A DNA stretch of 63,296 nucleotides, filler included, from Bonamia ostreae (lineage: Eukaryota): assembly GCA_040357525.1 (NCBI GenBank). It is 36 parts of 36 records of this genome, joined end to end, with 100 filler letters (N's around TTAATTAATTAA, not from the genome) between each part and the next. Parts side by side here need not be neighbours in the genome. Positions count along the whole stretch, not along the records: positions 1 to 1,672 come from JBDODL010001462.1; 35 more parts are not named here. One strand, 5' to 3'. Both the position numbers and the translations under genes were made by a program. Positions 1-58,141 of the stretch are shown in pieces; positions within the stretch are counted from its first letter, which is position 1, and every line of letters begins with the position of its first letter. The notes below the pieces were generated by a model. That model ran no database searches. It was not told the DNA's origin and saw nothing but the letters and a program-made list of their open reading frames with translations.

Positions 1-44
1 TTTTTTATTTTATCAAAAACAATTTTTTTACCAAAAATTTTTAG

Positions 45-784
45 TCACTAAAAAGAGAAAAGGAATGGTTAAAAATAAAGAAAAAACTAAAACTGAAAAT
101 AAAAGCTCAACAAAAGCAGTTTGACTAAACATTAATTTAGAATTGACAAAATAAAACCGCCGAGCGCAATCATAAAAGAACTCCAAAATTTGATCTTGGA
201 CAACAAAAATTTTGAGGAACCGAAAAATTTTACAAACTTTGAAAATCTGTTTTTTTATCTCATTAAAGCGATGACATCAAAAAACGAAAAAATAATTTGA
301 TCGAAAACAAAACAAAATTGGCCAATTCTTTGCAAAAATCAAATTTGATTTTGGATAAATTGACTGATTTTGAAGCTTTCAGACCAAAATTTTCAAAGGT
401 AAAAAAATCCAAATTTAGTTCATCGAAGAATATTCTCTGTCCAAAATTCCAACTTGTCAAAATTACGAAAAACAAATTTTTGATTTTCGCAAAAAATTTG
501 GTAAAATTGATTAAATTTAGACCATTTTAAAAGCGAAACAAAAGAATTCGTTGACAATTTTTACAAAATTAGTTTAAATTTGAATAAATCTGCTTCGACT
601 GAAAATTTTAGAAAAATGGAAACATTGGAAAAAAATTTGGTCGAAAAAGTTTAATTTTAATTTTTAGGAAAATCAGTTAAAGTCGAAAAATAGAGAAATC
701 GAAGAAAAGGAAAATATTTTTCGAGTGCAAATTACGGACGTAATGAAGCGCCTTACATATTTGGAACAAAATAAAATTTTGTAA
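45..784 (+). CDS. 3' part of an unknown K/E-rich coiled-coil protein (protist), five tiny introns
   Basis: The frame stays open to TAA 782-784 after removing GT-AG introns 119-140, 249-268, 501-520, 550-572 and 649-667 (19-23 nt). Confidence 0.75.
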
Positions 785-828
785 TTTTTAGAACTAAAAA
801 ACTTACTGCCATTTTTATAAATATCACA

Positions 829-1471
829 ATGCTAAAAAACCATTTTGCCGTTTTGATATAATAATATCGCCAATCGGAATTAGCCATGTTTTCCAAACAT
901 GGGCGAAAAATCCGTTTGAAATTACTTCGTAACATGAAAAATTGCTTTTCGGTGATCACCAAAAAGCTTAACTCGGATGGACTAAATTTGAAATTTGAGA
1001 TTCACCAAAACCCAAAATCGATTTCAGTTTAATTAAAATTTAGCTTTATTTTTATAAAATGGTTCAAACTTTAAGGAATTGCCGTTTATATTACCGTCTG
1101 ATCGCCTTCATCACATTTTCGCTTCCAATTTTAAGGGACAACTTTTTTGTTCTGCGAAATTTAAAGATCCGTTTAATGAAATGACAGTCAATGTCATGAA
1201 AACTCGGATTCCATTTTACAATTACGAAATTTTAGTCAAAAACTTAACTATCCTCAAAAACAAAAAAACGTTCAAATTGCCAAATTTTCGGCTCAATTTC
1301 GACAACGAAGAAATGCAGATTTTTTCTGGCAATTATTCTCTTTATTCCTTCGATGAAATTCTTTGTGCTAAAATTTTGGATGTCAAAGAAGATGTCAGAC
1401 AGTTTTCAAAACGTTTTTTAATGCAAAACTTTTTTTTTCACTTTTTAAGTATGCTTACATTTTTTTTGTAG
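829..1471 (+). CDS. Unknown multi-exon protist protein; faint resemblance to a Tubby C-terminal region
   Basis: ATG 829, several GTTT..AG candidate introns, ORF 1079-1471 containing ILKNK..PNFRLNF. Exon structure is not resolved. Confidence 0.35.
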
Positions 1472-1672
1472 TTATTATTTTGTGTGTTTGTTGAAGTTTT
1501 TTTGTTTTGATTTTTTAGGTTTTTTGGTATTTTGTTTTGAGTTGTGTGACGTGTGAATTGTTTGGGAGTATTTATTTTTTTTTATTTTATTTTTTTTTTT
1601 TTTTTATAGTTTTTTTTTGTAGTTTACAGCATTACATTTTTCTGGATCTTTTTTGGAATTTAGATTTTTATA

Positions 1673-1772
1673 NNNNNNNNNNNNNNNNNNNNNNNNNNNN
1701 NNNNNNNNNNNNNNNNTTAATTAATTAANNNNNNNNNNNNNNNNNNNNNNNNNNNNNNNNNNNNNNNNNNNN
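1673..1772. other. Artificial contig spacer N44-TTAATTAATTAA-N44 (first of 35 copies, recurring every ~1.75-1.77 kb up to 61546-61645)
   Basis: Identical 100-nt block with a six-frame stop palindrome; intervening contig lengths fall from 1672 to 1651 bp. Confidence 0.99.
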
Positions 1773-2258
1773 CCCCCAACGTGATTGACCTGAACAAATT
1801 TTTGGCCACTTTGGAAGATAATTAGCAAAGTCTTCCACTCTGAAATTGGTCAAGTCGCCCCCTTTTGTTAAAAATTATTAATATATACAGCAAATTAGAT
1901 TACAAAAAATTAAAGGAATAATACATGTATGTTATCTAATATCAAAACAGCATTGGCAATTGTTTTAGAAATCAGGAAGTTAGGTGTTATTTGTATTCAG
2001 TTTTGCCGATTTCGAAAGGTCGTGACGTGACATTTTCAGATAGGGGCATCAGTTTAGCCGATTTCAAATAGGGATGACTTCACCATTAGTAGATGGGGCA
2101 ACTTTGTTATCTTTTTGTAATAATTTTGAAAAAGGGATCAAGTTTGTTGAAAAGAGGGGTAAGTAGGAATGGATGGGGCCAAGTTAACAGGGGGAAATAC
2201 ATTGTAGTTGTCATGCTTCCTTTCACATATGTATTGAATGTTTCCTACTTTATTTCAG

Positions 2259-3018
2259 CTATTGGCAAGAGGTGGTATTGAAATTTATGGATGGCACACC
2301 AGACATACCAGTAACAGTGGACAGACAAACTGCACAGAAACTGGTAGCAGGAGGTATTGTTTCAGATTAATAATAAGAATTAATGTGTGCCATTGACCAT
2401 TGTTAATCAGTTTTATAACATGTATACACATGCAAAAGCTGGAGATGTTTCAGCAACCCATCTGTCAAAATGTACCTATGGGAATGTAAACATCTAGAGG
2501 TATATATGTAAAAAGAGTCTCAAAGTTGAAAATAGAAGTAACTGTAGAGTAGCAAGAATTTTATAGATGCAGATTGCATGAGCAAGACATAATGATTTTT
2601 GTGTTGTACTGAATTTGATACCAGAGCATAACTTGGTAATATATAGTATCATACAGTAGTAACAAATGCCTAAATATAAAGTATATATTTGATATTTATT
2701 AATCTGCATATGAAATTTTCTTTAAAATCTACTCTTGCATGTAATACCCGGTACTAGTATCTATAGATATGCAACACTCAGTAAGCATAATTTTTTTTAA
2801 TGCATATATTACCACATAGGACTGCCTTGTTGTCCTACTGAGTCGGGTTTGGATCAAATGACTACATTGATGAAGGTGACCATTATGTATATATATACAT
2901 CATTTTAAGGTGTTTTTTTCAGACTTGGAATTGATCAACAAAATAAAGGCAAATGTATTGGAAAGTGGACAGGGTAATGAAATACTGGACAGTAATGAAG
3001 CATTGGATAGTAATAATA
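2259..3018 (+). CDS. Two phase-compatible internal exons (2259-2353, 2923-3018) of an animal (host) gene
   Basis: Pyrimidine-rich TTTCAG acceptors, GTATTG/GTAAGT donors, 569-nt intron; joined frame ...QKLVAG-DLELINKIK.... Confidence 0.5.
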
Positions 3019-3604
3019 GTAAGTATTCACATACTGTGATAACTGAACTTCATGAACTAATAGGCTGTAATAAATTTATTAATTCCTCGATTCTCATCCA
3101 CCTTTAAAAAAAAAAAAGAAGTCATCCAGGTGAATTTTATTTTTATATTTGTACCATGATAGGCCTTTTTTTGACACCCCTTACTAATGAGGCTTAATCG
3201 TAATATTTGAGATAATCCATGCGAGATCCTATACCTAAAACATTGCTGTGCACCAATGACTTTGATAGTTTGAAGATTTGCAGGTCAGATGACCGCAACA
3301 ATATTTGATTCTGTGTTGGGTTCTCTGAATTTGCTTTTACGGGCGACATCACATGCTCGTTGATAAATACGATGTCCAGGTTTCAAAAATGTCTCATGAT
3401 ATACTGGGCGTTTCATAACTATTTTTCTTGTCTTTTACCTGATNNNNNNNNNNNNNNNNNNNNNNNNNNNNNNNNNNNNNNNNNNNNTTAATTAATTAAN
3501 NNNNNNNNNNNNNNNNNNNNNNNNNNNNNNNNNNNNNNNNNNNTGCTAATGTAATGGAGAGGGGAGAGTACTTCATTTATAACAAAGCATGATGGGATAT
3601 CTTA

Positions 3605-4015
3605 TTCATAGGTGATAACCGTATAATGATCAGTCTGTTCTATAGGTGATAACCGTATAATGATCACTTTGTTCTATAGGCGGGGCTCTATAGTTAGAGC
3701 ACCTACATAGGCTATGCCTAAAATGTTTAAAGTGATGGTGATCAGTCTTTTATTGGGGGGGGGGCTGTTATGATCAGTCCGTGTCTTTAGACAGATACCT
3801 ATAGTGATAATTCCTTTTTATAGTCGATAACCCTATCGTAATCAGTCCGTTCTATATAGGCGGGGATCTATAACGATCAGTCTTTTTGGGGGGTGGGGTA
3901 GGCAGATACCTATAGTGATAAATCAGGCTTGACTGTATAATGATCAGTTCGTTTTATAGGTGGTGCCCTATAGTGATCAGTTCATTCTATAGGCGGGACC
4001 CTTTAGTGATCAGTC
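3605..4015 (+). repeat. Degenerate ~33-nt minisatellite (host)
   Basis: Recurrent TATAGGTGATAACCGTATAATGATCAGTCCGTTC-like units. Confidence 0.8.
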
Positions 4016-5314
4016 CGTCCATCCGTCATATTTTTTTTACTATCCCTGCAGGCATTAAATCGAATATGTAGTTACGAAATGTGAATATAATGGGTTACAG
4101 CACAAGTTCTGAATTTAAACTGTGTTGACCTTATCCTAATCCCTGAACTTAACAAACTACAGTGTGCAGGTTTGCGGATCATTTCCGTGTATCCCAGTAA
4201 CTATTGCCGATGAATTCAAATCATTTTGCTAGCATTGGATTGCACATTTTCTAAAAGTGTTAATCCAAACATTATTGTGTGTGTATTGGGGGGGGGGGGG
4301 GGGTAGACCTCTTAGACCACCTCCGCTTCTGACGAGGCAGTGACGTTCATGTAGGAGATATAACAAGTTTCTCCCCGATACTCAATCAGATCCTACATGT
4401 ATATGGTATTTGTAATACCATTATTTCATGAAAAGTGTTCACTTACACTAAATACGAATCAGAGGTGAAGATAGGAAATGCATGTACGTCTGTGGTGAAC
4501 TTTGTTTAGGCAGCACAAGTAGAAGGCTCCAACCAATTCGTTTCCACAAACTTCTAAGAAATAGGATTTTGAACGTCAGCTTAACACCCTTTTAATTTAT
4601 TCCTCAAGGTATTTTGAGACGACAATTTTCCACCCGTGAAAAACGACAATTGCATAAGTATATTTTTTTTAAGAGTAAAGTAAAATACAACAAAAAAAAA
4701 CAAAAAAAAACAACTCAATATCACACAATTTAAAGACAAGTTCGACAGTCATACTAATTCATGTACCCTACATTTCTCTGCATATGCTTCCGTAACTGTG
4801 TAATATCTAGATATGACCGACAACAAAGATTTATTGTCTTTTTTAAAGAACCACAAGAGATTATAAATACATTTCCCTGTTTTATAACACTACCGCAAAA
4901 GAAAACGAAGTTCCAGTTTTAAAGACGAACCCTAGACCGGATAAAATCCGCACACAACAGAAGCGAGATACATGTACATTTATGCATGTACAATTTGCCT
5001 CAGTAGTCAGATGTAGTATCATGAATACTTAGATATGCTTATTGATGCTAATCTTCAGTAACGGAGCATAAATTGTTATTTTCAGCACATAATACGTACG
5101 AGTTATCATTTCTGAATTTTCATTAAGTTATGATAGTCCGGGGCAAACTGTAGTAGCCTCAGTCTACCGGACGAGGGTTAATGTCTAACCCTGGACGTTG
5201 ATACATCCAAGGAANNNNNNNNNNNNNNNNNNNNNNNNNNNNNNNNNNNNNNNNNNNNTTAATTAATTAANNNNNNNNNNNNNNNNNNNNNNNNNNNNNN
5301 NNNNNNNNNNNNNN

Positions 5315-5408
5315 ATCCGTCATTTTCGTTGTTGTTCCTTCGACTGCGAATACGATTTATCAAGGAATCAATTTCTTCATAATCTGTGATGTTAATGTTG
5401 TCGCCCAT
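5315..5408 (-). CDS. 5' end of unknown protist protein (MGDNINITDYEEIDSLINRIRSRR...)
   Basis: ATG at 5408, open to the contig edge, divergent from the gene at 5525. Confidence 0.55.
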
Positions 5409-5524
5409 TTGAACAATTTTGTTATTGTTTTCGATATAATCGTTTAAAGCTTTTTTTTGTCAGAGAAGTGTTTAATTAATGTTTTTATATATAATCGTTA
5501 ACAAACGTAAAAAATTGAAAGAAA

Positions 5525-6340
5525 ATGTTAAAAATTAGACAGATCGGTTCTGTTTGTAAAAGAAAAAATAGATTATTTCTGTTTGTCAATTTTCGGCTTT
5601 TCGCAATCCGTAAAAAAGAGCTTAGAATTTTAAGGCGGAAATCAAAAAGAGAAGAAAAGAGCGTTTCGAGAGAACCTTATTCCATCGTTAAAGATCGATA
5701 TTCTCAAAGTTTTCAACATTGACATTTTAGAAAAAGTCAAATTTGATGTTTTTTACTACGTTTTAAGCTATTCGTCTTTGTTTATTGCGCTGGCAATTTT
5801 AATTTTCATGGCTCGGTATTACTACAGAAAACATAGAACGCATTCGATTATTAACGAAGCTAGACTGACGATCAATCAAACAAAAAATGTTTTTTTGACG
5901 AATGACAAATTTGCAATAAACAAATTTACAAAAATGTCAAAAAAGCAAAATTTGCAATAAACAAATTTACAAAATTTACAAAAAAGTAAAATTTGCAATA
6001 AACAAATTTACAAAATTTACAAAAAAGCAAATTTTGCAATAAACAAATTTACAAAATTTACAAAAATGTCAAAAAAGCAAAATTTGCAATAAACAAAATT
6101 TAAAAATTTTAGCACAAAAATAAGCGCTATTTTTTGCCAAGAAACGCTCAAATAATCACAAAACAAACAAAAACTGAAAACGATTATTTTCTGCATCTTT
6201 TAACTCCCATTAAATCAGGTTCAAATGGCCAAACTGCTTTTCTTTCTTTAAAAATAAACAATTCGGAAATCAAATTCAAAACAACCGAAATCCAAATTTT
6301 GGAGAACAACAAAATTTTCAATGTTTTGGCTAAAAAATAA
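5525..6340 (+). CDS. Single-TM, probably mitochondrial protein, possibly COA1/Tim21-like
   Basis: Basic N-terminus, TM segment ALAILIFMARYYY, then SIINEARLTI...LLTPIKSGS. Intron 5889-6112 is filled with a ~38-nt tandem repeat. Confidence 0.4.
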
Positions 6341-6369
6341 ATTTCCCTTTTTGAACAAAACAAGTTAAT

Positions 6370-6781
6370 TTATCAAATTTTCGATTTTTTCGATTGAACT
6401 GTTCTCTTTATTTCTGTAAGAACAACCAATCGTCTTTTCTGTAAAATCTCAAGTTGCTTCTCTAGTTGTTTCCTCTTTTGTTCTCCGCCATGTTCTTCAC
6501 TTATTCTCTCGTTTTTCTCTTTTTCCTCAAAATATTTTTTTAGTCTTTTTGTTTTTCAATTTAATAAACTTTGGTTTGATATTTTCCAATCGCCGCAAAG
6601 TCTCCAACATTTTTACCGGATAAACTTCAATTGCCCTTTCTCTTCTCCGCATTGCTTCGAAGGACGTAATCGGTTTCCTTATCAGTTTGATGTGGTATCC
6701 GTCTTTAGTCACAAACGTGAATCCGTGCATCTTCCTCTCGATGCATTTGTTTTCGTATTCGATCGCGTCTTCGAAGTTGTC
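6370..6781 (-). CDS. 3' part of unknown basic/coiled-coil protist protein
   Basis: ORF 6527-6730 extended by one intron; upstream intron (6782-6985) is tandem-repeat filled. Confidence 0.5.
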
Positions 6782-7085
6782 TGAAAATTTTTATTTTGAA
6801 AAATCGAGAAATTTTGACAAAAAAAAGATTTATAAAAAAAATTTCAAAAATTGAAAAATTTTGACAAAATATTTATAAAAAATGAATAAAATCGTCTGAA
6901 AATTTTGACAAAAAAAGATTTATAAAAAATTGAATAAAATCGTCTGAAAATTTTGACAAAAAAAGATTTATAAAAAATTGAATAANNNNNNNNNNNNNNN
7001 NNNNNNNNNNNNNNNNNNNNNNNNNNNNNTTAATTAATTAANNNNNNNNNNNNNNNNNNNNNNNNNNNNNNNNNNNNNNNNNNNN

Positions 7086-7362
7086 AAATAAAGTCGTTTT
7101 TAAATTAATATCATTTTTCATTAGAGAACGAAACCTCGTTACAAAACGATTTACAGAAATAAAGAGATTTGTCTCTGTAATAATAAAAGTTTTTTAAAAT
7201 AATAATTTTCGAGGACACCGAGTAACCAAAAACGCCAAGTTTTAACGATTTGGAAGCATAATCGACGGAAGCCCAATTCTGATTGAAAATCGTAAAAATT
7301 ATAAACAGAACTGATACCGTTTTAAGGAATAAGGACATAAACAGATATATTTTACGATCCAT
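7086..7362 (-). CDS. 5' part of unknown membrane protein
   Basis: MDRKIYLFMSLFLKTVSVLFIIFTIFNQNW, hydrophobic N-terminus, divergent from TRAP1. Confidence 0.5.
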
Positions 7363-7804
7363 TTTTTAGTTTTCAAGCGAATTAATTTTTATAATTTTTT
7401 CGAAATTTATGTAATTTTACAAATATCGCATTTTTTGAAACTAATAACAATTTTTAAAGTTTGATCAATTTCTTTTTAAACAACAATAATACAAAAGATG
7501 ACGACTAGACGAATAAAAAACGAAAATGTGTTCGCCATTTATTTTATCGTTCTTCAACACGCTAATTTATATTATCCTTTGCAGCGAAAGGGCAATTTTT
7601 CTTAAATAACAATTATTTTTTGTAAATAAAATATTTTTTACAAAAAAGGAAAATGTAAATTTGTTAAATTTCAAAAAATTTTTGGGCTAAAAACTGAGAT
7701 TTGAAACTAAATCGTTTTATTTACAAATTCGATATAAAAAGACTAATTTCGTTATAATCAAACTTAATTAAAAACATTGAAACGACAACCAAATTTAGCA
7801 AAAA

Positions 7805-8593
7805 ATGCTCCGCAAAAATTTTGTAAAATTTGTAAAATCATCAAATCGCAAAACAAATACGAACTTTCGGAGATTCTACGATTTTAAAGCTTTTTCTAAT
7901 CCGTTTATCAAATCCGCAAGTTTTAACGCTTTTTCTACAACAACGGAACCGAACAAAATCGCACAAAAGAAACCGGAAAAGAAAGCCATTCAGATCAACG
8001 AAAAAATTAAAGGTTTCGCAAACGACTAAAATAGGAAAACGAAGCGAAGAAAAATTTAAAGCGGAAACAAAAGAAATCTTAGAAATAGTCTCAAAATCAA
8101 TTTACACGAACAAAGAGATATTTTTGAGAGAACTGATTTCCAATTCATCCGACGCGATCGAACAATTGCGATATAAAATGAGAGAAAGTCCGAACGATTT
8201 TAGCCAAAATGTCGATTTCAAAATCAATATTTTTACTGATCCTCAGAACAATAGAATTATTATACAAGTTATTTTTTTCTAAATTTATTGCTAAAAATCC
8301 AAAAAAGCTTAAAAAATGAGCTTTAACGAATTTTTTATAATGAAATTTGATAATTAGGACAACGGGATCGGAATGGCCAAAAAGCAATTAACGGAAAATC
8401 TCGGAATAATCGCAAAGTCCGGATCGAAGAATTTTATGAAGAGCATTAAAAACAAAGGAGATAAAGCTTCAACGATTATTGGTCAATTTGGAGTTGGATT
8501 TTATTCGTCTTTTATGATTTCGAGCAAGGTCGAAGTTTTTACGAAAAGTTGGCTCGACAAAAGTTCGTCGGCTTTTTATTGGGTTTCAGACGG
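7805..8593 (+). CDS. TRAP1: Mitochondrial Hsp90 (TRAP1/Hsp75), exons 1-3
   Basis: R/K/S/F-rich presequence; [53 protein letters not shown]. Introns 8013-8034 and 8268-8357; third intron starts at 8594. Confidence 0.93.
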
Positions 8594-8938
8594 GTTTTTG
8601 GGATTAAAAATTTTTTTGCGATATTTTTTGGGATTAAAATTTTTGATGATTTTTGTTTTTTTTTCGATATTTTTTGGGATTAAAATTTTTTATAATTTTG
8701 TTTTTTTTCGATATTTTTTGGGATTAAAATTTTTTATAATTTTGTTTTTTTTCGANNNNNNNNNNNNNNNNNNNNNNNNNNNNNNNNNNNNNNNNNNNNT
8801 TAATTAATTAANNNNNNNNNNNNNNNNNNNNNNNNNNNNNNNNNNNNNNNNNNNNAAAAATTGACCATTTTTATATTCTTTCAATTTTGTTGAAACTTTT
8901 CCGTCTATTTGCTCGAAAATAAAAAAAATCGAATAAAT

Positions 8939-9525
8939 TTAATTATCTTTATTGTTGTTGTCCTTGTCTCCAACATTATTTTTATCGCCATTATTTTTAT
9001 CGTCATTATTTTGTTCATTTTCGTTGTTGGTGCTATCATTAAGAGCGTCTTTCATAACTTGGTCGATATCAATGTCGTTTTTGTCGACGTCAGGCAAAGA
9101 TTCGATAAGAAATCTTTGTCACCAATCAATTTGTCGATTTGTTGTTTTTCCGATTTGTCTGGCAGATTCGAAAGGCTCATCGCAATTGCTTTCGCCAATT
9201 CGTCCTCTTCTGTTTCCATCGGTTCAGATTCTGTCTTCGTCGCTTCTAAATTTTATTGCTTCTTAAAAATTTTTATTTTTATTTTTTCCGATTTTACATT
9301 TATCGGCCATTTTAAGCAATTTTTATTTTTTCCGATTTTACATTTATCGGCCATTTTTAGCAATTTTGAAAATTTCAACGTTGATTTTCTTCCAAAGACA
9401 TTTTGAGTGCCAAGGCGAGTTCAGGGTCGTCTTCCATTTCAGCCGACCCGTTTTGCGGCACCTTCGCAAACTTGCCGAAAGCAGTGTCGGCGAGACTTTC
9501 GCCTTCGCTGACAGAAACCATTATC
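8939..9525 (-). CDS. PSMD4: 26S proteasome ubiquitin receptor Rpn10/PSMD4, C-terminal half only, with a frameshift near 9096-9112
   Basis: VSEGESLAD, UIM1 EDDPELALALKMSLEE, UIM2 EEDELAKAIAMSL, then DKDFL../ESLPDVD and an acidic tail. The vWA domain is absent from the contig. Confidence 0.85.
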
Positions 9526-9565
9526 CTGTTTTTTCTACTAAGCTCGCATATAATTAATCGCCATT

Positions 9566-9652
9566 ATCTCACAGGAGCATTGATTTAAATGTTGTTGCGG
9601 GGGAATGACGTGACCGAAAGGGCGTTCCTCTTGTTAGTAATTCCTGTGAAGA
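9566..9652 (+). ncRNA. Candidate structured RNA or hairpin element
   Basis: Perfect TCACAGGA (9569-9576) / TCCTGTGA (9642-9649) closing stem, inner GGGGGAATG/CGTTCCTCT helix, CC-GAAA-GG tetraloop; a GC island in AT-rich DNA. Confidence 0.4.
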
Positions 9653-9776
9653 TGACTAAAGCAAAATTATGTGGTTTTACAATTTGATCCAATTAATATC
9701 CACCAATCCTATTCTTTTAGTAGAAAGCGATTTTTAAAGAAAGAAAATAAGACTTTAAAATAATTTTAATAAAAAA

Positions 9777-10430
9777 GTGATGCGTATAAGCACTAAGGAC
9801 GATCTTGATAAACATTCCGCAACTCTTTTAATGTTAGTAAAACAGATTATGCTCCTTCATTCTCCTCGACAATACAAACTTGTATTGGATACGATATTTA
9901 AAGAAACACCAATTCTTTCTAAGATAGATAAACCAGGATTAGGTTTAAAACATTATCTTAAAAAGCTGTGATAGTTGATTTTTTGGAAGGAAACAGACCT
10001 GATTCGGTAGAATCAGGATCTGCAGAAGAAAGATTTTTCAAACTAGTCAGTGATTTTGAATCCAAAATCGAAGTTCTTAAATAACACATTAACTAATTAT
10101 ATTTAAAAAGACTTTCGATGAAACGTTTTATATTGAATCGCTCCAATTATGCGGTTTTCATTATTTTAATCGTTAAAATAGTCGAATTTGCTAGATATGG
10201 CTTTCTGACTTTGACGGATACACTTTTGATAGAGTTAAATGAGAAATTTGTTGAATCAAAAATGCAACATTAAAAAGCTTCTGAATATATGAAATTTGTT
10301 AGTGATTCTTATTCACATTTGTTAGTGAGTTTTTTACTTTAATCCAATTAAACAGAAGATGATGCTGATTTAAAACAGAACTTAAAAAATTTAACTTTGC
10401 ACTTAGGTTTTGAACCAATAATTTGTTAAG
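9777..10430 (+). pseudogene. Decayed intron-containing gene of unknown family
   Basis: Protein-like frame shifts at the A5 run (~9960) into AVIVDFLEGNRPDSVESGSAEERFFKL, continues over GTT..AG introns, and has an in-frame TAA near 10271. Confidence 0.45.
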
Positions 10431-10829: not shown

Positions 10830-11799
10830 TTAATCCATATAATCACTCGCGACGAAAATATCTTTACTGACATAATACTTTTTCAACAATTCGTCGTTCA
10901 CAGTCCACGTAAATCTTTAAACGAACCGAGTAAAAATATTCAAACATTTGCAAATCCTCTTTTTTAAAACGAGCAATATCGGACGGCGACAATAGTTCGT
11001 GGTTTGGGCCGATCATTGTAGCGCCGACCAGAAACGAAAAGATCTCTTTGCTCATGTACATCAGCAAAATATCGAACGGATAGACGAGATATTTCAAGAC
11101 TTAAATTTTGCTTTTAAAACAATAATGATATTTGTGATCTGCGATTAAGCATCTAAGATGATCGTCAGTGTAGTTAAGACACACTTCTACTTCCGGCATT
11201 ATCTTTCTTATCTTAATTTTATCTTTATGGTAAAAACTTGGTATAAAGGAATGGGCCAAAACGAAATGAAAATCACGTTTTCGATTTTCGAATGCGTTTT
11301 AACCAAGTCGATCATGTTTTCCACCATTAATTTTGAGCAAGAAAAGCCCTTTATTTCAATAAAGAGCTTTAAATTTTTTTCGTTGCATTTGACAAGTGCA
11401 TTTTTTAGTGTTGCAATGCTTTTTCCGTTATTATATTTTTTCAGAATTAAATCTTTGTAATCGCAGTCGTTTATAAGACTAGTGTCTTAAGTTGTATTGA
11501 AAACCATTTTCATCAAACGCCTTCATCGATTTGTGGTGTAACAAGACGGGAATTCCGTCTTTTGTCTCCTGCACGTCAATTTCTATTGCTTTGAACCCCA
11601 AACAACTTCCCTTTTCAATGGACTCGACCGTGTTTTCGACAACACCGGGGATTCTGCAACCTCTAAACGGTTGCGGTGAAAACCTGTGACCGACATTTAA
11701 AGTGCCCCATTTTTTCGTGTAAACATTTTTAGGTCGATTTTGAAATAATTTTCTTATTAAGAACATTGTTGATATTGATATCAAGAAGACATAAAACAT
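10830..11799 (-). CDS. Glycerophosphodiester phosphodiesterase (GDE1-like) with N-terminal anchor
   Basis: GHRG (after removing 21-nt intron 11663-11683), ENT, IEIDVQETKDGIPVLLH; WTVND restored by a 31-nt intron; TAA at 10830-10832. Confidence 0.9.
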
Positions 11800-12393: not shown

Positions 12394-13790
12394 ACAAAAA
12401 ATTTTGGCAAAAGAACAACTAACAAAAAACATTAAAGCTCCAATAACATGCACAAACGCATTAAAAGCGATAGCAATTACAGCAGCAAGCGAAACAGCTG
12501 CATATAATAAAATGTTTTTGGTCACTTCGTTCTCCGGTAATATGTTGTTGCCGGCGTACTGAATTAATATTTGGCAAAAAAACTTTATCGGTCCAAAAAG
12601 CTAAAAATCTTTTGACTCCGAAATCGCTTCCTTGTCTCAAAGCGAAGGAAATGGATATGACCAGAACCATTAAAATTCCCCCGTTGGCCATAATATAATT
12701 TTTATAGACTTTCCAACCGATTGCTCCGGCTTTTAATTTTTTATTTTGCAAAATTCAAAAAGCGATTAAATTTTAAAGTAAAATGTGATCAGAATAAAAA
12801 AAGTTCAAAGTAATAAAAAGAAAAAATCGATCAAAAATTTTAAAAATGCGAAAAATAAAATTTAAAAACGCGGAAAATTGAAAATCGATCGAAAATTTGC
12901 AAAATGTGAAAAAATATTTAATAAAAAAGAAAAATCGATAGAAAATTTAGAAAAGTGAAAAAGAAAATTTAAAAACGCGAAAAATTATAAAAATCGATCG
13001 AAAATTTGCAAAATGTGAATAATAAAAATTCGAAAAAATATTTTCAAAACTTTCCTTTTTCTCTCTATCTATCAACTTTCCTTCCGAATTGTGAGCCCCT
13101 TCTTCGAAACCAGAAACCGCTTCAAAAGAAACAGAATTTTCTATCCCTGTTCCGCTGATTGAAACAATGCGTGATCGCGATCCAGAAAACTCTATTTCGT
13201 GTTTTGTGTCATCGATTTTTTCCAAAACTTTTTCTTCGGTCAAATCGTTTTCATCTCGTCTCGTTTCGTTCTTATCCGAAGAAAATGCATTTTCCAAACT
13301 TTCTTTGATCTGTTCGAAAGCACCGAATTTTGTTATTTTCCCATTTTCGATCAAAATGAGCTTATTCGCGAGAGGATAAAAGTCGACTGCGTTTGTACTG
13401 AAAATGACTGTTTTGTTTTTTAACAAATCTTTTATGCAGCTATTCATTATTTTCTGTGCCACTTGCGGGTCTAGTGCGCTTAAAGCGTCGTCGATCAAAT
13501 AAATGTTTTTTCCTGTTAATAATTTTCGAATTTGCCAATTTGGATTTTCAAAATATTTTGGAATTTATTAAAAACTGGAATAAATGGCTCTCGCAAGAGA
13601 AACTCTTTGCTTTTGACCACCGGAAAGGTTTATTCCTCTTTCCCCGATTTCAGCGAATTCGCCGCCTTTTATCATTTTTAAATCTTCCGCGAGGCAGCAT
13701 GATTGAACGACTTTTGTGTACCATTTTTTGTCAAATTCGTTTCCAAATAATATGTTATCGCGAATCGTTGCATTTTGAATCTTTATTTAA
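12394..13790 (-). CDS. ABCC/MRP transporter, NBD1 to start of TMD2 (partial)
   Basis: [48 protein letters not shown]; repeat-filled introns at ~12730-13050 and ~13790-14061. Confidence 0.92.
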
Positions 13791-17696: not shown

Positions 17697-19144
17697 ATGG
17701 TTTCCATGAGTTGTTAGCGCTTTTAGGAGAAGCACTGTTATTCATCTGTTTATTACTACTTCTTCTTTTATGCTTTAGATATTGCAGAAATCGGCAGAAA
17801 CAGCCGGTTTACTGTTACGATTCAGTTCAACCAAGCGATATCATTATTGCGGAACACCCCATTCAAAAATGTTTTTTTCTAAAAATGTTAGTTTCATTGT
17901 CTCAACCCGCACCAATCCCTTTCCAAAAATACAATGTGCGTCCTACTACAATTAAAAAAAAATTGAAACATAATCCTCTTACCAATCTCATAAAGACTGC
18001 AGCCACAAAAACGGGGATTTTCGAGAAAGAAAATTCTGTTGTTAAGATGCCACCTTTCTATCACAAAATGAATAAGCTGCAGATTTTAATCGATTTGTAC
18101 AATGAAACATTAAATGAAAATCTATCTTTTAATAAAACAGCGAAAATTCTTGGTGAGGAAATTAGATACGGCATCAAAGTTATCACTTTCAACACTTGTT
18201 TGAACAAAATTTCTAATGATTTCGAATCTTTGTTTTTGGAAAAACGGGACCTTTATGTTGTAGGGCTGCAGCAAGTCCCAAATATAACTAATTTGAATGA
18301 AAATATCTTAGAATCGATTAAAAAGAATCACGGCAGCGACATTTTCAGTTTAGTTTTTAGCTGCGTTAGCGATAAAACAGCATTGCTGGTCTTTGCTTCA
18401 GAAAGAATGGAACATGAAATAAGTAATGTCGAAATGAGAAAAATCGGGAAAAATGTGGCACTCAGGATGTCAGTTGGGGATTCTACTCTTTGTTTGGTAA
18501 CTTCTGAATTCGATAGTCAAGGAGCTATTGGAGTAGAGAACGTACTAAGAAATATTAAATTTCCGAAAACGCTTTGGGATCTCAAAAAGGATAAAATTTT
18601 CGAAAGCGAGTTTTATAAATTTGATTACAACAATTTAAATTGTTAAATTAAAAATTGAAGCACTGTCATTTGGTTTGGCGACTTTAATTGCCGTTTGAAT
18701 CCCGATGAAAATATATTCGACAAAATCAATGAAGCAAGAAACAATTTGAATAATAATAAATTTGAAAAGCTTCTATGGAATGAACAAGTTTTTTTTGCAA
18801 ATTTCAGTTGTTACAACAAAAAGTGGGGCATTTAAAAAACTTCAAAGAAGCAAATATTTCTTTTGCGCCGACCTTTAAGTACGATCTCAATACAAATAAA
18901 TACGATGAAAGGTTTGGTTTTAGTAAAGAATAGTGATTCTCCGGGGTGGTGTGACCGTATTCTGTACTTTTCTGAAAGACTGGAGCCCTCGAACTACAAA
19001 TCTGTACTTAATATAAGAAATAGTTATCATAGACCTGTTTCAATAAATTTCGATTATACGATTCAATTTTTCGACGAAAAATACGACCGATATTGTGACA
19101 TGTTGAGAGACAAAATAAAGAACAACAAACAGGTTATTGATTAA
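17697..19144 (+). CDS. Transmembrane inositol polyphosphate 5-phosphatase-like protein (5' truncated, degenerate active site)
   Basis: TM LLFICLLLLLLLCF; DLYVVGLQQ, VIWFGDFNCRL, FAPTFKYD, PGWCDRILY, SYHRPV. Introns include 17871-17891, 18788-18807 and 18912-18933. Confidence 0.85.
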
Positions 19145-19581: not shown

Positions 19582-20120
19582 CGGCAAATATGAGGCGGGA
19601 AAGTTAAAAAGTCCCATTAAGTTCATTCTCGTGTCGTGATTTCGACGACACCAAATATAGGCCAACATAAACGAAAACGCGCTTCCGAGAAAAATGACAG
19701 AGAAGAAAGACCCCAACAAAAGTATCATCGTCCAACCAACAAACAGCATATATACAAAGTCCGAACTGCGCCCAATAAATTCCTCTTCTAAACTTGACGA
19801 ATATCGGCAACTTTAAAAATTTGGTTCAAGCACGAAAAATTTTCGAATTTGTAAAGTTGGAAAAAACAAGAAAAAAAGTTGGAAAATAAGATTAAGATCG
19901 AGTTTAGAGCCGAAAAAGAAGAAAGAAGTGATCAAACGCCACAACTGCCCGTCTTTGATTCTTTCGATGTGAAAATACAATTTTAGCGGCGAAAGATAAT
20001 TAAGTTTGCACAAAGCAGTCGTCGAAATCTTATTTTTGTGGCAAAAAAAACAGAAGCGAAAATGTAAGATTTTGTAAAGAAAGGAATATCTGAGAAAAGG
20101 CTTCCTACGTCGTAGTTCAT
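19582..20120 (-). CDS. Derlin (Der1/DERL2-like), 5' part
   Basis: DIPFFTKSY, GQLWRLITSFFFFG, FLGSAFSFMLAYIWCRRN, GLFNFPASYLP. Confidence 0.92.
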
Positions 20121-20237
20121 TCGAGAATAGAATTTAAAGCTTGTGATATAAATTTTTATTTTATCGAGTTTTCTTATTCGTCAAATTATTTTAAATTTAA
20201 AATATATTTTATATCACAAATTTTGACAAAATCAAGA

Positions 20238-20310
20238 GCCCTGTTAGCTCAGCTGGTAGAGTATTAGATTCTTAATTTAGTGGTCGCGGGTTCGAGTCCC
20301 GTACAGGGCT
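20238..20310 (+). tRNA. tRNA-Lys(CTT)
   Basis: GCCCTGT/ACAGGGC acceptor stem, TAGCTCAGCTGGTAGAG D-arm, TTAGA-TTCTTAA-TTTAG anticodon arm, GGTTCGAGTCCC T-arm, followed by an oligo-T terminator. Confidence 0.96.
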
Positions 20311-20355
20311 TTTTATAGTTTATTTTTTATTACTTTTTTTGGATATAATAAAAAT

Positions 20356-21394: not shown

Positions 21395-22780
<1,386 letters not shown>

Positions 22781-24756: not shown

Positions 24757-25314
24757 CATCGGATAAACATTAATCGCCGCATTCCCCATCATCGCCATCC
24801 CCGCCTCCAAAGACCTTTTCTGCCCCGACTCCTCTGCAAATTTGATCGAACCGAATTCGCGTGGCTGCCCTTCGTAATAAATGCGCACAGATTTAATCTG
24901 TCCAAACACCGAAAACACGCGACCGATTTCTTCCGGAGACACTCCGGACGGGAGAGGTCGCACGGCGACCAAGAAACCGTTCGAGCTAGATTTCGCTGTC
25001 GAATTGTTAAGCACTAATTGCTTTCCTCTCATTTTGAGGAATTTGCATTCCGTCAAAGCCAACCGCTGCGCTTCCGCCGTCGTGAAATTGACGAAGCCGT
25101 AGCGAGCGGGCATTTCCACGGGGGACACAATTCGCGTGCTAATTTATAAAAATTGTAGAATGATTTGGCGCCATTTAAAGACAAATTTTATAAAATTTTA
25201 GCAAATTGCGACGGACCTGTGGATTTCCCCGCAACGAGAGAAAATAAGGGACAAGTCAAAATCGTTGACTTGCGAGGGAATGTTTCCCACCCAAACTGGA
25301 AAGCTCTCCGGCAT
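24757..25314 (-). CDS. Multi-RRM RNA-binding protein, 5' part
   Basis: RNP2 VWVGNI, RNP1 RYGFVNF, second RRM VFSVFGQIKSVRI...FGSIKF. Confidence 0.85.
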
Positions 25315-25562
25315 TATAAAACTATATGAGTTTCTTTTATATTTTTTATAACTAAAATGAGCAAATTTGCTCATCGACATTTTTGTAGCAATAAATGGAA
25401 GCGATAAATGGAAGCGATAAATGAGCTTAAAAGATAAATGAGCAAATTTTTGTCGTCCGTTTAGTCGAGTTTTGAAATGGCGTTTGGCAAATTATTTTGG
25501 CAAAAAAACATAACTTTGAAAATAAAAACTTAAATTGATTTAGTCTTTGAGACTAAATTTGT

Positions 25563-26273
25563 CTAAATTTTCTTGGCGCTAAAGTAATTGTCTCTACTTC
25601 GACTCCTTTTATAAAATTTCTTGTGATCTCTTCCAATTCGCTCTTTTTTATAAAATCTGTTCGATTTGGGATTCCTCTCAAAAACTTCATTTTTCGAAGG
25701 CGTTCTATTTCCATTTAAAAATTCTTTTTCGTTTCTTTTTTTCGGGTCTTTTTTGGGTTCGTAGGCGCTCCGAGCGTACGAAACGTTGATAAAACAACCG
25801 TCGATTTCAAAATTGTCGATTTGCGACATTACTTTTTCAGCCGAATCGATTTTTTCGAACGCGACAAAACCGAAGCGCTTCGATTCTTTCGTAACAATGT
25901 CTTTTATCAGAATCGCTTCTCTGATTTTTCCAAATTTGGAAAAGACTGTTTTCAATGTTTTTTCGTCCGCCATTTTTGGCAAGTTTGAAACATAAATTGT
26001 GTTGTTTTTCGATTTGTTGAAGTGGTCCTTTTTTGCGACATTAAAATTTTGGCAGAAAAACATTGACAGATCTGTTAAAAGTTTCTGAATAAGGGAACTC
26101 TTTTGTTATTTTTAAGGAATAGTCCAAAAGTTCTTGATAGCGTAATTTCGATAACACCGAAAAAACACTTTTTTATGAAAACAAAACAAAAAATCGGACA
26201 TTGTTTTTTCTTCAATATTTTTCGTTTTTTCACCTATTTTTTCATTTTCTTCCATAAATTGTTTTTCTGCCAT
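25563..26273 (-). CDS. Single-RRM protein with short RS tail (SR/Tra2-like)
   Basis: TIYVSNL, SKRFGFVAF, C-terminal KRSRSRD; 5' exons approximate. Confidence 0.75.
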
Positions 26274-29143: not shown

Positions 29144-29944
29144 GAGAATGTGAAAAAGAACTTCGAATAATAATCATCGGATGTTCAGGATCCGGAATTA
29201 GCTCCACAGGAAATTCAATCTTGGGAAAACTGCAGTTCGACTCTGCGCCCTCTTCAGAGTCAATTACAATGGATCTAGAAATTGGAGAAGTCGAACGTTT
29301 TGGGGAAAATATCATCGTTATTGACACCCCCGGGTTTTCCAATTCAAANNNNNNNNNNGAACTTTGAAAAATATTTGATAGTTATCTTTACTCATAAAGA
29401 TAGATTGGAACATACTCATCCTGAAGAAACATTATCTGACATTATCGTTGATTTTGGTAACCAAACAAAAATAAAGCAATTGCTTCTTAAAGCAGGGTAT
29501 CGATATGCTGAATTGCGGCATTTCAAGCAATTTGCGACAAACACTCAACTAAATGATCAAGTTGAAAACATATTAGATATGACCAGCAAATTGCCAAAGG
29601 AAAGATTTCATTTTGATTTAACTGCAAAACAAGTACTGCCAGAGATCAGATCAAGTTCTACCTCCAGACATTTTAAGTCTGGGGAGTCTTCAGTTTGTAT
29701 TGATCGTCATGTAATATTATTTGTGATTGTACTACACTATTTTCCTTTCGTAATATTTTACTTCTACATCAAAAATGTTATACAACATAATATTCAAACA
29801 GCAAAAATGTTACCAGAAACAGAGATGAAATCCCAAGGGCAGAAATGTCCTAATCCTAACCCAATTCAAACAGCAAAAATATTACCAGAAACAGAGATGA
29901 AATCCCAAGGGCAAAAAAGTCCCCTTGATAAACCGAAGTCCAGG
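29144..29944 (+). CDS. GIMAP/AIG1-family GTPase fragment (host)
   Basis: ELRIIIIGCSGSGISSTGNSILG, VIDTPGF, IVIFTHKD; interrupted by an internal N gap, with a ~72-nt duplication at the 3' end. Confidence 0.85.
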
Positions 29945-30158: not shown

Positions 30159-31678
30159 AAAAGGAACATTTTCTATTTCGGAAGCAGAAAACGTTAAGAA
30201 TGGAACTAAAATCATTATAAATCTCGATGAAAATTGCTCCGATTTTTCGAAACGTGAAAACATCGAAAGTTTTTAAGACATTTCAAAATTTAAAGAAATA
30301 ATCAAACAATACTCAAATTTTATCGAATTTCCGATATTTCTCGATGGCAAAAAAATGAATATGGAAGGAGCGCTTTGGCTCAAAGATCCAAAATCGGTCT
30401 CCGAAATTCGCCATTCTGAATTTTATAAAAATATGACAAATGCGTATGATTCTCCGATGCTCCACATCCATTTTAGAAAAGATTATCCGATCGCTTTAAA
30501 CGTTTCTCCCAATTCAACATTTATGATTTTTTTTACAAAATTTGATTAAAAATTGCTTTATCAAATTGCAAAAATTAGTTTTAAAAAACAAAAATTGCTT
30601 TATCAAATTACAAAAATTATTTTAAAAAACAAAAATGGCTTTATCAAATTACAAAAATTAGTTTTAAAAAACAAAAATGGCTTTATCAAATTGCAAAAAT
30701 TAGTTTTAAAAAATAAAGTGGCTTTATCAAATTGAAAAAAATCTAAAAAACCAGAGCATCCTTTACATCCCCAAATACCACTCGGAGAAGTACGGCAATG
30801 CCCGGATGAAACCCGGCGTCAGTCTGTATTCCAAAAAAGTGCTCATTCAGAAAAACAGCACAGAACTGCTTCCGGACTGGATGCGCTTCGTAAAAGGCGT
30901 CGCTGACAGCGAAGACCTCAACCTGAACATTTCCAGAGACAGCACGCAGAGCAAATCCACTCTTAGCCGCATCGGCTCTATCCTCACGAAGACCTTGATC
31001 GCTCGGCTCAAAGAAACAATCAAAAACGATCCCACAAAATATGAACAATTCTACGAAGAGTACGCTCTCTTCCTCAAAGAAGGCGTCTGCACTGATTCGG
31101 AGAACAAAGATGCGCTCGCTCCTCTCCTGAAATTCGATTCTTCGAAGATCGATAACAAAAGTAAGAAAAAGCTTGAAGACAAAAATGACGATTTGAAGTC
31201 GTCTGAAAGGTTTTTTATAATTTTTTAAAATTTTTGTCCGTAAAAGCTTAAAAGAATAAAAATTATTTTCTACAAAAAATTTAATAAAATGTTAAAAATT
31301 TAATATTTGAAATATAAAAAGCTTTAAATGTAACATTAAAAAGTCCGGAAAATTATAAAATTTTTTATAAAAAATATCAAGTTCGAAAGAAAAAATTTCA
31401 AGTTTGAAAGAAAAAATTTCTGGAAGGACATTTGATGATTATGTCGGAGCAATGGACGGACAACAAACGAAAATTTACTATTTGGTGACATCGAATAGAT
31501 CTGCCGCTGAGAATTCGCCTTATTTCGAAAGCTTTAAAAAGAAAGGTCGAGAAGTTCTATTTTTGTACACTCCAATAGACGAATTTGTGATGCAAGGATT
31601 GGGCAGTTATAAAAACAGGAAGTTGGTTTCGATTGAATCGGCCAAATTGGATGAAGAAGATATGGATCAGTTTGACAG
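30159..31678 (+). CDS. TRAP1: TRAP1 exons 4 onward (continuation of 7805-8593)
   Basis: GTKIIINL, YSNFIEFPIFLDGKKMN..ALW (no charged linker), VSLYSKKVLI, LPDWMRFVKGVADSEDLNLNISRD, FLKEGV, SPYFE. Introns 30269-30295, 30502-30754 and 31210-~31381. Confidence 0.93.
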
Positions 31679-34318: not shown

Positions 34319-35128
34319 AAAACATTCAAAATCATTTACCCAAAAATTGCTTTCAAACAATAAACTTTCTACGCTTTTGTCGTCAGCAAAATCGCCTTTC
34401 TCAAATTCGATCCAAATCAAACCGTTTTTTAACATTTCTTTCTGAATTTTGAAATTTGCGATTTAAAAATTTAATCGATTTAAAACAATTGCGATAAATA
34501 ATCTGTTTTTGTCCCAGTTTAGATCTTTGTTTAAAAATTGAAAATTGACGCCATTTTTTGATTTGAGCGAATTTAGGATCTGGCCAAAATCGTTGTTGAT
34601 TTCAAACGGCACAGAAATCAAAAATTCGCCGCCGGCAAATTTTTCGATTCTGAAGGATTTGTCGAATTTTGAAATTTTTTCGATCGCTTTTTTGATATCT
34701 GTTTCATTTATGTTATTTCCGATTTTCTTTAGAAGGCTTGAAATTAAAATGATTCCGCCGTTTTCGTTTCTGGTTTTAAGACAAATATTTATTATTTTGA
34801 CCGCCAATTCCACGTAAAAGTTTCCTAATCCCGTTAATTTGCCGATTAGACTTCGATTCGCTTTACATTATTTTGACATTTAAAAACAAATTAACGGATC
34901 GATCCCGATTTTGTTGCACATTTCTTGGAATTGGTGCCGAAAAACAGGATTTTTGTTTATTTTGCTTTTATACTTCAACGCAAAATCAGTCAAGTTCTTT
35001 TCAAATTTTTTTATTCCTTCTTTCAAATGTTTTGTTTGTTCTTTAGACAAATCTAGCCCAGTTTTCTTATACGCTTCTTTTTGTCTTTGTCTGTTTTTCA
35101 ACGAACTTATTCCGCCGCTATTGAACAT
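34136..35128 (-). CDS. SNF8: ESCRT-II subunit Vps22/SNF8
   Basis: INKNPVFRHQFQEMCNKIGIDPL, FYVELAVKIINICLKTRNENGGII, LISVPFE, GLIWIE; 3' end uncertain (see findings). Confidence 0.92.
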
Positions 35129-43714: not shown

Positions 43715-44145
43715 AACTTAAGTGATTTGTTAAGTGCAGAAGAGTCAGTTTTAAGGTGATTTGTTAAACTGGAAAAAATTTAGCCGTTGGCTCAAAATGG
43801 CGAAGAATAATTAAAAATCGACTGAAACAATTTAAAGGCTCATAAAATTTCGAAGATGAAGATCGATAAATTGGCTATTGCGAATCCAATTATTCCGCCA
43901 ATCATCATCGACTTCAACTTTTTTCCGGGAAAATTTATTTCTTCCATTAACGCGGCAATACTTATCGTTAAAAGAACTGACGTTACTTCATAAAAATTTT
44001 AAAATTGCTNNNNNNNNNNNNNNNNNNNNNNNNNNNNNNNNNNNNNNNNNNNNTTAATTAATTAANNNNNNNNNNNNNNNNNNNNNNNNNNNNNNNNNNN
44101 NNNNNNNNNCAAAAAACCGAATTTTAAAATGGCTCTATTTTAAAA

Positions 44146-45700: not shown

Positions 45701-46092
45701 ATACTATAAACAATTATTTAGCAATAAAGCGAAAAAGTAATTTGCAATAATTGTTCAAAAATTGCNNNNNNNNNNNNNNNNNNNNNNNNNNNNNNNNNNN
45801 NNNNNNNNNTTAATTAATTAANNNNNNNNNNNNNNNNNNNNNNNNNNNNNNNNNNNNNNNNNNNNCTTTCGAAGATATGTTGTTTTAGTATTTTAACCAT
45901 TTTTAAATAAAATTTGTTGCCATTCGCTTTTGAAGATATTTTATTTAAGCATTTTGACCATTTCTAGATTAGATTTATTGGAACTTACAATTCTTTAGTC
46001 ACATTTAAATTTTTAACTAAACCTTAAAAAAGTATTGAAAAATCTAAAAGTTTTGGCAAAAAAAAATTAAAGTCTAGCTATAAAAACAGAAA

Positions 46093-58000: not shown

Positions 58001-58141
58001 TTGTCAATAAGAAAGTATAATACACAGTTGTTGACTGGGGCNNNNNNNNNNNNNNNNNNNNNNNNNNNNNNNNNNNNNNNNNNNNTTAATTAATTAANNN
58101 NNNNNNNNNNNNNNNNNNNNNNNNNNNNNNNNNNNNNNNNN

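Follow-up and report, generated by a model that had tools for sequence, protein, structure and literature searches.

Are the five segments of 19–22 nucleotides (nt) that interrupt an otherwise continuous reading frame at positions 45–784 of a sequence from the haplosporidian Bonamia ostreae genuine introns, and how could a spliceosome recognise introns of this kind? U1 and later U6, the small nuclear RNAs (snRNAs) that contact the 5' splice site, read introns at donor positions +3 to +6 and at exon position −1. Three of the five segments begin with GTTT instead of GTRAGT. The original prediction, made from this sequence, had proposed that such tiny introns form a divergent splicing code in which the U-rich 5' end might pair with the A-rich 3' end. 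Here, we examined the whole stretch of DNA that contains the locus (the window; 63,296 nt, GCA_040357525.1). We read its introns as conventional U2-type GT..AG introns with a lower length limit of approximately 19–20 nt and lineage-specific signals, in which the U-run and the A-run are two separate signals, and we give this reading about three chances in four.

Verified introns in conserved genes

The window comprises 36 unlinked contigs in descending order of size, from 1672 down to 1651 nt, joined by 44 N, a 12-nt motif with stops in all frames and a further 44 N (e.g., positions 1673–1772). The guanine-plus-cytosine (GC) content of individual contigs ranged from 0.25 to 0.49, while the published B. 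ostreae assembly has 33.3% GC and an N50 of 1417 bp (PMC11069148, Table 1). Pfam matches in many contigs pointed to ordinary eukaryotic genes, i.e., HSP90/TRAP1, inorganic pyrophosphatase, derlin, protein kinase, RNA recognition motif (RRM) proteins, EAP30/Vps22, XPB, Not1, calpain, uS12 and an amino-acid transporter. The closest relatives of TRAP1 were found in stramenopiles (diatoms and oomycetes, with 44–52% identity) and not in animals. Together with the identity of a kinase on one contig to a deposited B. ostreae protein (see below), this ruled out a myxozoan origin, which the ultra-short introns of that group had suggested (PMC13644364). Conserved open reading frames (ORFs) were open under translation table 11, as expected for the standard genetic code.

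An intron was considered verified when it was defined by a joint in an RNA contig, by a deposited gene model or by homology, the latter either to single-residue precision or through ordered profile coordinates. This yielded 15 verified introns; 10 others, of 19–29 nt, were kept as predicted only, and both groups together made up a combined set of 25. We had no say in where 8 of the 15 verified introns begin and end: these positions were dictated by the RNA joint, by the deposited model or by a motif-blind dynamic programming (DP) procedure supplied with GT, AG and codon usage only.

With regard to RNA, a contig from sequencing run X4, a run labelled 'RNA?' by guess but whose contig is nonetheless spliced, matched positions 851–1026 and 1076–1412 with zero mismatches, in the gene next to the 45–784 locus. 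It omitted precisely the 49-nt GT..AG segment at 1027–1075 (+ strand; GTTTAA donor, TTAAG acceptor) that separates exons 886–1026 and 1076–1412, so that the only verified intron covered by an RNA-type contig was skipped (1/1). After position 1412 the X4 contig departs from the genome with a loose end of 255 letters, and the sequence at 1413–1418 (+) is GTTTTT, the donor of another intron, for which no acceptor could be located.

Four introns were taken from a deposited protein, 'Serine/threonine-protein kinase stk11, variant 2 [Bonamia ostreae]' (P0122), which is 100% identical to the kinase encoded on the thirteenth piece of the window and could be mapped exactly onto it, with a single GT..AG solution at each of the four junctions. 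These introns, all on the + strand, occupy 21892–21911 (20 nt, GTTTAG), 22045–22084 (40 nt, GTTTTG), 22228–22416 (189 nt, GTTTTT) and 22520–22555 (36 nt, GTTTTT). The spliced protein covers positions 1–263 of the 263 in the Pkinase profile in one unbroken stretch. The B. ostreae annotation was produced with funannotate, for which transcriptome reads already published for the species served as training data (PMC11069148).

The remaining verified introns were defined by homology. In TRAP1/HSP90 sequences, the 90-nt segment at 8268–8357 (+; GTTATT) and the 27-nt segment at 30269–30295 (+; GTTTTT, TAAAG) correspond to inserts of 30 codons with four stops and of nine codons with one stop, respectively, relative to three TRAP1 homologues, and both were also returned by the motif-blind DP. 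For the 253-nt intron at 30502–30754 (+; GTTTCT, ACCAG), the TRAP1 alignment resumes without a missing residue only with this acceptor. The part of this intron from 30550 to 30745 (+) consists largely of tandem copies of a unit of approximately 45 nt. The exons flanking the 35-nt intron at 53334–53368 (−; GTTTTT) in the gene for ribosomal protein uS12/S23 align with residues 5–54 and 56–142 of the same PDB chains (e.g., 11hg_RR), which leaves one residue for the split codon, and the motif-blind DP again agreed. Similarly, the exons around the 63-nt intron at 13513–13575 (−; GTTTTT) of an ABCC-type transporter gene align with residues 710–776 and 780–848 of 9br2_A (ABCC2), one residue being left for the split codon.

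Ordered profile coordinates defined the others. Four exons of an inositol 5-phosphatase gene match PF22669 in order (1–133, 171–205, 214–240 and 247–287) and are separated by introns at 18610–18660 (51 nt, GTTTTA), 18788–18807 (20 nt, GTTTTT) and 18912–18933 (22 nt, GTTTGG), all on the + strand. In the Derlin gene, two ORFs in the same frame match positions 12–67 and 68–155 of the DER1 profile, and the 57 unmatched nt between them, at 19811–19867 (−; GTTTTT), hold a stop. Likewise, two same-frame ORFs of an EAP30/Vps22-like gene match profile positions 2–69/71 and 83–202, and an intron of 27 nt at 34861–34887 (−; GTTTTT) leaves 12–13 residues for 13 profile positions.

Removal of the verified introns thus restored the conserved proteins uS12, ABCC2, Pkinase and TRAP1 and brought PF22669, DER1 and EAP30 into order. 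The tiny GT..AG introns of the window are real, and GT..AG introns are removed from RNA. Three of the examples on which the original prediction drew, at 18788–18807, 21892–21911 and 30269–30295, are among those verified here. Verified lengths were 20, 20, 22, 27, 27, 35, 36, 40, 49, 51, 57, 63, 90, 189 and 253 nt. Consequently, the claim that most introns measure 19–40 nt describes the combined set, in which 18 of 25 were at most 40 nt long, better than the verified set, with its median of 40 nt and its maximum of 253 nt.

The same observations bear on whether the frame breaks are introns at all or instead reassigned stop codons, programmed frameshifts or assembly errors. The assembly is indeed highly fragmented, and under translation table 28 a frame from position 65 reads through 16 stops; yet this read-through of 65–790 gave no recognisable protein, and an alternative genetic code was discarded. 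Moreover, between introns the standard code leaves conserved genes open, the piece missing from the RNA contig is exactly the 49-nt GT..AG segment, precisely the inserted codons are absent from homologues, and all 15 verified segments, as well as all 10 predicted ones, start with GT and end with AG. An explanation without introns is hardly credible in view of these data.

A further observation concerns retention. If retained, all 8 verified introns with a length divisible by three would bring an in-frame stop into the message, and 5 of the 7 others would also contain one, a pattern that would also be expected by chance at 80% A+T. The pattern is reminiscent of a translational check on tiny introns that has been described for Paramecium.

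Probable separate signals at the two intron ends

The donors of the verified introns were markedly uniform: T was found at +3 in all 15, at +4 in 14 and at +6 in 10, while position +5 was occupied by T in 11 introns, by A in two, and by C and G in one each. GTTTTT was the donor in 8 of 15 introns and GTTT in 14 of 15, and a G at exon position −1 occurred only once. Among the 5553 GT sites of the window, the fraction that reads GTT is 0.406 and the fraction that reads GTTT is 0.194, which gives binomial probabilities of 1.3e-6 (GTT in 15/15) and 1.3e-9 (GTTT in 14/15). The introns whose boundaries we did not choose behaved alike (GTT in 8/8, GTTT in 7/8). When the 31 picks of the motif-blind DP were counted, 21 had GTT, eight GTC, one GTG and one GTA; the GTC picks include several that can be shown to be wrong, one of which removes the ABC signature region.

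At the 3' end, position −3 was A in eight, T in four and C in three verified introns, compared with a background frequency of 0.40 for A before AG. Further upstream, A at −8 (12/15 verified; 18/25 in the combined set) and T at −5 (10/15 and 18/25, respectively) were prominent. In the 21 introns of at most 63 nt, the frequency of A reached 0.71 at −8 and 0.62 at −7, and that of T reached 0.81 at −5, whereas 10950 other GT..AG segments of the window (pseudo-introns) were flat over the same positions, at 0.31–0.34. A strict CTRAY motif was present in none of the 25 introns, and YTRAY was not enriched (5/25 versus 0.18). The longest pyrimidine run averaged 3.6 nt, versus 3.5 in pseudo-introns. In contrast, runs of AAAA occurred in 15 of 25 introns (0.27 expected) and runs of AAA in 20 of 25 (0.52 expected). 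The original description of GTTT(T) donors, and of acceptors without a polypyrimidine tract or CTRAY branch site, was therefore borne out, with the nuance that T at −5 and A at −8 are position-specific. Likewise, the splice-site code is divergent in the sense originally suggested, with a GUUUUU-like 5' site, a near absence of G at +5 and at exon −1, and an A-run in place of CTRAY.

It could be argued that U-rich donors and A-rich 3' ends merely follow from AT-rich DNA and carry no signal. Intron interiors do contain 37% T and 42% A, the share of A at −3 (8/15) is close to its background before AG, and pyrimidine runs are no longer than in the controls. A composition of 0.37–0.43 T does not account, though, for T in 15/15 introns at +3 and 14/15 at +4, or for GTTT at more than its share of all GT sites, and the peaks at −8 and −5 stand at fixed positions where pseudo-introns are flat. 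We regard composition as a very unlikely explanation. Furthermore, the U-then-A polarity of the introns exceeded that of the 10950 other GT..AG segments, and is thus not background composition; the outcome named beforehand as fatal to the idea of a divergent code, an equally strong polarity in background DNA, was not what we found.

According to the reading we favour, the U-run would be the 5' splice site itself, with a consensus of GUUUUU and neither G at +5 nor an exonic G at −1. The A-run, which keeps a constant spacing to the 3' end (with A peaking at −8/−7) and precedes two or three U (peak at −5) and NAG, may represent a branch region, a spacer and an acceptor in miniature. With separate signals at the 5' and 3' ends, the polarity would therefore not reflect two arms of a helix.

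Such a helix was the core of hairpin-assisted splicing: by base-pairing across the intron, the U-run and the A-run would juxtapose the two sites and replace recognition by proteins or snRNAs. The ends are in fact complementary: when the first 10 nt were compared with the last 10, the longest stretch of complementarity averaged 5.1, compared with 3.97 after shuffling of interiors (p 2e-5) and 3.87 in the 10950 pseudo-introns (p 9e-6). This excess is a consequence of the 5' U-run facing a 3' A-run and adds nothing to the folding energy. When the 21 introns of at most 63 nt were folded with ViennaRNA, the mean minimum free energy (MFE) was −1.25 versus −1.11 kcal/mol for interior shuffles at 37 °C (Wilcoxon p 0.71), and −3.96 versus −3.58 at 15 °C (p 0.68), with a mean z of −0.13. 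Against dinucleotide shuffles, 10 of 20 introns had an MFE of 0 at 37 °C, both verified 20-mers included, and only two had z below −3, namely 22520–22555 (−5.6 kcal/mol, z −3.77) and 22639–22659 (−1.7 kcal/mol, z −3.52). The five introns of the 45–784 locus gave −0.4, 0, 0, −0.1 and 0 kcal/mol in 5'–3' order. In addition, all pairs would be A–U. Introns of 57–253 nt carry these runs too, and a helix between their ends would enclose very large loops. Pairing would presumably also keep U2 and U6 from reaching the donor and the adenosines that probably serve as branch points. On thermodynamic grounds, the hairpin is largely refuted; as a general mechanism, we rejected it and consider it most improbable.

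Several points weigh against the two-signal reading, at the level of the window as well as at the locus itself (see below). The verified set is small (n = 15), and 5 of its boundaries (DER1, EAP30, ABC and the 51- and 22-nt introns of the 5-phosphatase) were chosen by eye from the GT..AG pairs that frame and homology allowed. Directly mapped RNA backs a single junction, 1027–1075. The branch point and the snRNA pairing discussed below are inferred, with neither an snRNA nor a splicing factor seen in the window. Window-wide statistics did not help either. A codon-model DP over 256 dinucleotide pairs and lengths of 15–60 nt gave 25 for GT..AG versus a median of 27, and since it does not discriminate, the reality of the introns rests on the homology and RNA cases. 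ORF statistics with different stop sets were uninformative, and bridging of ORFs throughout the window yielded 444 clusters, 230 with GT–AG versus 214 with CT–AC, with an enrichment of 1.06 for GT–AG in ORF pairs; these counts are too noisy because non-coding ORFs of at least 30 codons are plentiful.

The 45–784 locus and other predicted introns

Predictions of the same kind make up the locus from which the question arose. Splicing of five introns would give a six-exon gene on the + strand (exons 45–118, 141–248, 269–398, 419–500, 521–648 and 668–784, with TAA at 782–784), whose 639-nt frame has no internal stop and encodes 212 residues; by eye, the predicted protein looks coiled-coil-like and is rich in K, E and N. 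The frame of the first exon opens directly after TAG at 42–44, without an ATG, and the 5' end of the gene lies off the contig. Positions 1–44 (+), with an A-run, then a T-run and AG at 43–44, are probably the 3' end of an upstream intron.

The five predicted introns, all defined by ORF restoration, were scored with a position weight matrix (PWM) trained on the 15 verified introns and compared with 3268 pseudo-introns. Three fit the verified pattern: 119–140 (+; 22 nt, GTTTGA, TTTAG), at percentile 0.72, and two in the top 1.5%, i.e., 249–268 (+; 20 nt, GTTTTT, TAAAG), at 0.996, and 649–667 (+; 19 nt, GTTTAA, TTTAG), at 0.985. The other two, 399–418 and 501–520 (+; 20 nt each), are doubtful, with atypical GTAAAA donors and percentiles of 0.51 and 0.44, respectively.

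These two segments lie at the centre of another interpretation, according to which the locus is not a five-intron gene: either only its GTTT-donor introns are real and the frame ends at TAA 528–530, or the region is non-coding or decayed and has been mended by chance GT..AG segments. Two of five donors read GTAAAA, and A at +3 was seen in none of the 15 verified introns. Without splicing, the frame runs for 129 nt past the donor of 399–418, and 270–527 is open. Searches were equally unfavourable to the gene: exon 3 as a query found no longer deposited protein, exon 5 had 0 matches among 1.84 billion representative proteins, and Pfam returned nothing above noise for the six exons or for 270–527. 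Four sequencing runs were mapped, to the first contig only, and none covered 113–840, including the RNA-type run that covers the neighbouring gene; runs X1, X13 and X20 touched this contig only through low-complexity pieces of 31–50 nt with 90–95% likeness. Set beside this scant cover, the finding that 0.66 of the words sampled from the first six contigs (1–10000) are present in DNA run X1 indicates that contigs differ in which public runs contain them.

For the gene speaks that the five introns alone produce a 212-codon frame ending in a stop, and that 399–418 and 501–520 are the only short GT..AG pair linking exon 3 to exons 5–6 and bound exon 4 exactly. A DP search gave a result that counts on both sides. 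The + strand of 1–1000 offers only 11 GT..AG segments of 18–24 nt, and the best path uses six, namely the five introns given above and a spurious segment at 44–62, with a score of 202, which ranks 2 among 284 dinucleotide-pair/strand combinations with 0.5–2 times as many candidates. One matched control pair, on the other strand, restores a longer frame (262 versus 202), and abundant pairs such as TT..AA also restore longer frames at the locus (266–276). We consider it a real possibility, though short of even odds, that the locus is not a five-intron gene. Because no independent support was found, the five introns remain predictions: that all of them are real has roughly even odds, and that the three GTTT-donor introns are real has somewhat higher than even odds. 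The original claim of five introns in 45–784 therefore stands as regards the frame that splicing opens, with ORF restoration as its sole evidence and two donors that misfit.

Outside the locus, the segment at 22639–22659 of stk11 (+; 21 nt, GTTTTT, AAAAG), another of the original examples and the one put forward for the hairpin, is a probable intron. It is probably retained alternatively, because the deposited variant 2 (P0122) reads into it and stops at a TGA, and its retention could be regulated. Apart from 22520–22555, no other intron folded more stably than its shuffles. The segment at 8013–8034, originally listed too, would probably have to be spliced out for the TRAP1 domain to be continuous with the one frame that has an ATG. 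The segment at 11486–11504 was kept as predicted because the downstream exon of this GDPD gene has no Pfam match. A helicase gene at 44127–45703 (−), whose C-terminal domain region is DDX60/Ski2-like by eye, contains a possible 25-nt intron at 44685–44709 that ORF logic does not demand.

A number of features of other contigs were recorded in passing. A unit of about 99 nt is repeated in tandem approximately three times at 62999–63296 (−), at a contig end and upstream of the amino-acid transporter gene. On the XPB/ERCC3 contig (GC 0.45), a lysine-rich low-complexity repeat block at 35832–36110 (+), between the ResIII and C-terminal helicase parts, may be an intron or an insertion. A tRNA-Lys(CTT) gene is located at 20237–20311 (+), between the derlin gene and a Myb-like gene. 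An AIG1/GIMAP-like ORF at 29360–29944 (+) fell below the Pfam cut-off, and several contigs, at 47622–52783 and 54637–58041, had no long ORF or Pfam match; these contigs might derive from non-coding regions of the parasite or have been carried over from a different organism.

Recognition of the splice sites and comparison with known systems

How might such a donor be read? Standard U1 (ACUUAC) would be unable to pair with UUUU at +3 to +6, and the exonic G is absent as well. The U-rich donor could be read by a U1 with a matching, changed 5' end, as in Entamoeba, or mainly by the ACAGA box of U6, which by our count would pair with four of five positions of UUUUU (one of them a wobble) versus three of five of UAAGU. 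The branch adenosine would lie in the A-run and be read by U2, as has been proposed for the weakly conserved A's of myxozoan and dicyemid introns (PMC13644364). No snRNA was detected in the window, either at the gathering score or at E ≤ 1; at the latter threshold, Rfam returned only tRNA and a sub-threshold SNORD74-like match. The protein with three RRMs encoded at 24757–26105 (−), on piece 15, was considered as a U2AF65-/PUF60-like factor; its similarity is only generic, with PABP as the best match followed by PUF60 and ELAV. In supplement file 1 of the B. ostreae genome paper, 'mRNA splicing, via spliceosome' is enriched among the orthogroup losses of the species (9/328 versus 77/12517, false discovery rate 0.006), and one 'U1 snRNA binding' orthogroup is found among its gains (PMC11069148).

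We tentatively propose that B. ostreae, and perhaps haplosporidians generally, have re-coded the 5' splice site to GUUUUU, without G at +5 or an exonic G at −1. Either U1 would have co-evolved, with a 5' end complementary to GUUUUU, as a second independent lineage after the Archamoebae, or U1 pairing would have become dispensable, with the U6 ACAGA box and U-binding proteins defining the donor. Combined with the A(−8)/U(−5) module at its fixed position, such a donor would make up a minimal intron of approximately 19 nt. This proposal is possible, if short of probable.

Lineages that depart from GUAAGU are natural experiments on the co-evolution of splice sites and snRNAs, and a parasite from the Rhizaria whose donors carry U at +3 to +6 but lack G at +5 would offer a test case independent of Entamoeba and more extreme. 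On the practical side, gene finders that rely on GTRAGT donors and a minimum intron of at least 30 nt will mis-model the genes of this commercially important oyster pathogen. The stk11 introns of the public annotation, the tiny introns of Ascetosporea and the U-rich donor of Entamoeba are already known. In the literature searched, outside which lay subscription journals and figures, we found neither a GUUUUU consensus for the donor nor a floor of 19–20 nt described for Bonamia or other haplosporidians. The genome paper terms B. ostreae introns 'canonical', with about two per mRNA (PMC11069148).

The closest parallel for the donor is Entamoeba, in which GUUUGU(U) donors have a co-evolved U1 reading ACAAAC (Roy and Bowser, 10.1101/2022.06.08.495308). 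The same source describes pairing of U6 ACAGA with donor positions 2–6 and reports clear compensatory U1 changes only in Entamoeba and Mastigamoeba. U at +3 and +4, a further preference for U downstream, donors with which a standard U1 could not pair, AT-rich introns and low-complexity branch motifs (putative in Bonamia) are common to Entamoeba and the introns described here. Entamoeba nevertheless retains the G at +5 (GUUUGN in 97–98%), which is found in 1 of 15 introns here, where T prevails (11/15). Moreover, Entamoeba is intron-poor, has a known U1 (ACAAAC) and belongs to the Amoebozoa, whereas Bonamia is a rhizarian.

Within its own class, Ascetosporea, Bonamia shares very short GT..AG-type introns with the mikrocytids Mikrocytos and Paramikrocytos. 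Mikrocytid introns are few and nearly identical, with 16 nt in 217 of 224 and 17 nt in the rest, and their spliceosome is reduced, with U2, U4 and U6 as the only snRNAs reported and U1 not found (PMC10245619). The introns of the window differ from these in ranging from 19–20 to 253 nt, in their diverse interiors and in their density, of up to four or five per 1.6-kb contig.

Among animals, introns of myxobolid myxozoans and Dicyema have medians of 22–27 nt, reduced motifs and no polypyrimidine tract, and two or three weakly conserved A's upstream of AG have been proposed as their branch point (PMC13644364). Their donor is 'GTa', in contrast to T at +3 throughout the verified set here, in an organism whose best protein relatives are non-animal. 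Finally, introns of 18–21 nt in the chlorarachniophyte nucleomorph, 15–16 nt in heterotrich ciliates and approximately 25 nt in Paramecium (PMC10245619; PMC5014332) resemble those of B. ostreae in their lower length limit and AT-rich sequence; their lengths are confined to narrow ranges, whereas those described here extend over a broad range above a floor near 19–20 nt.

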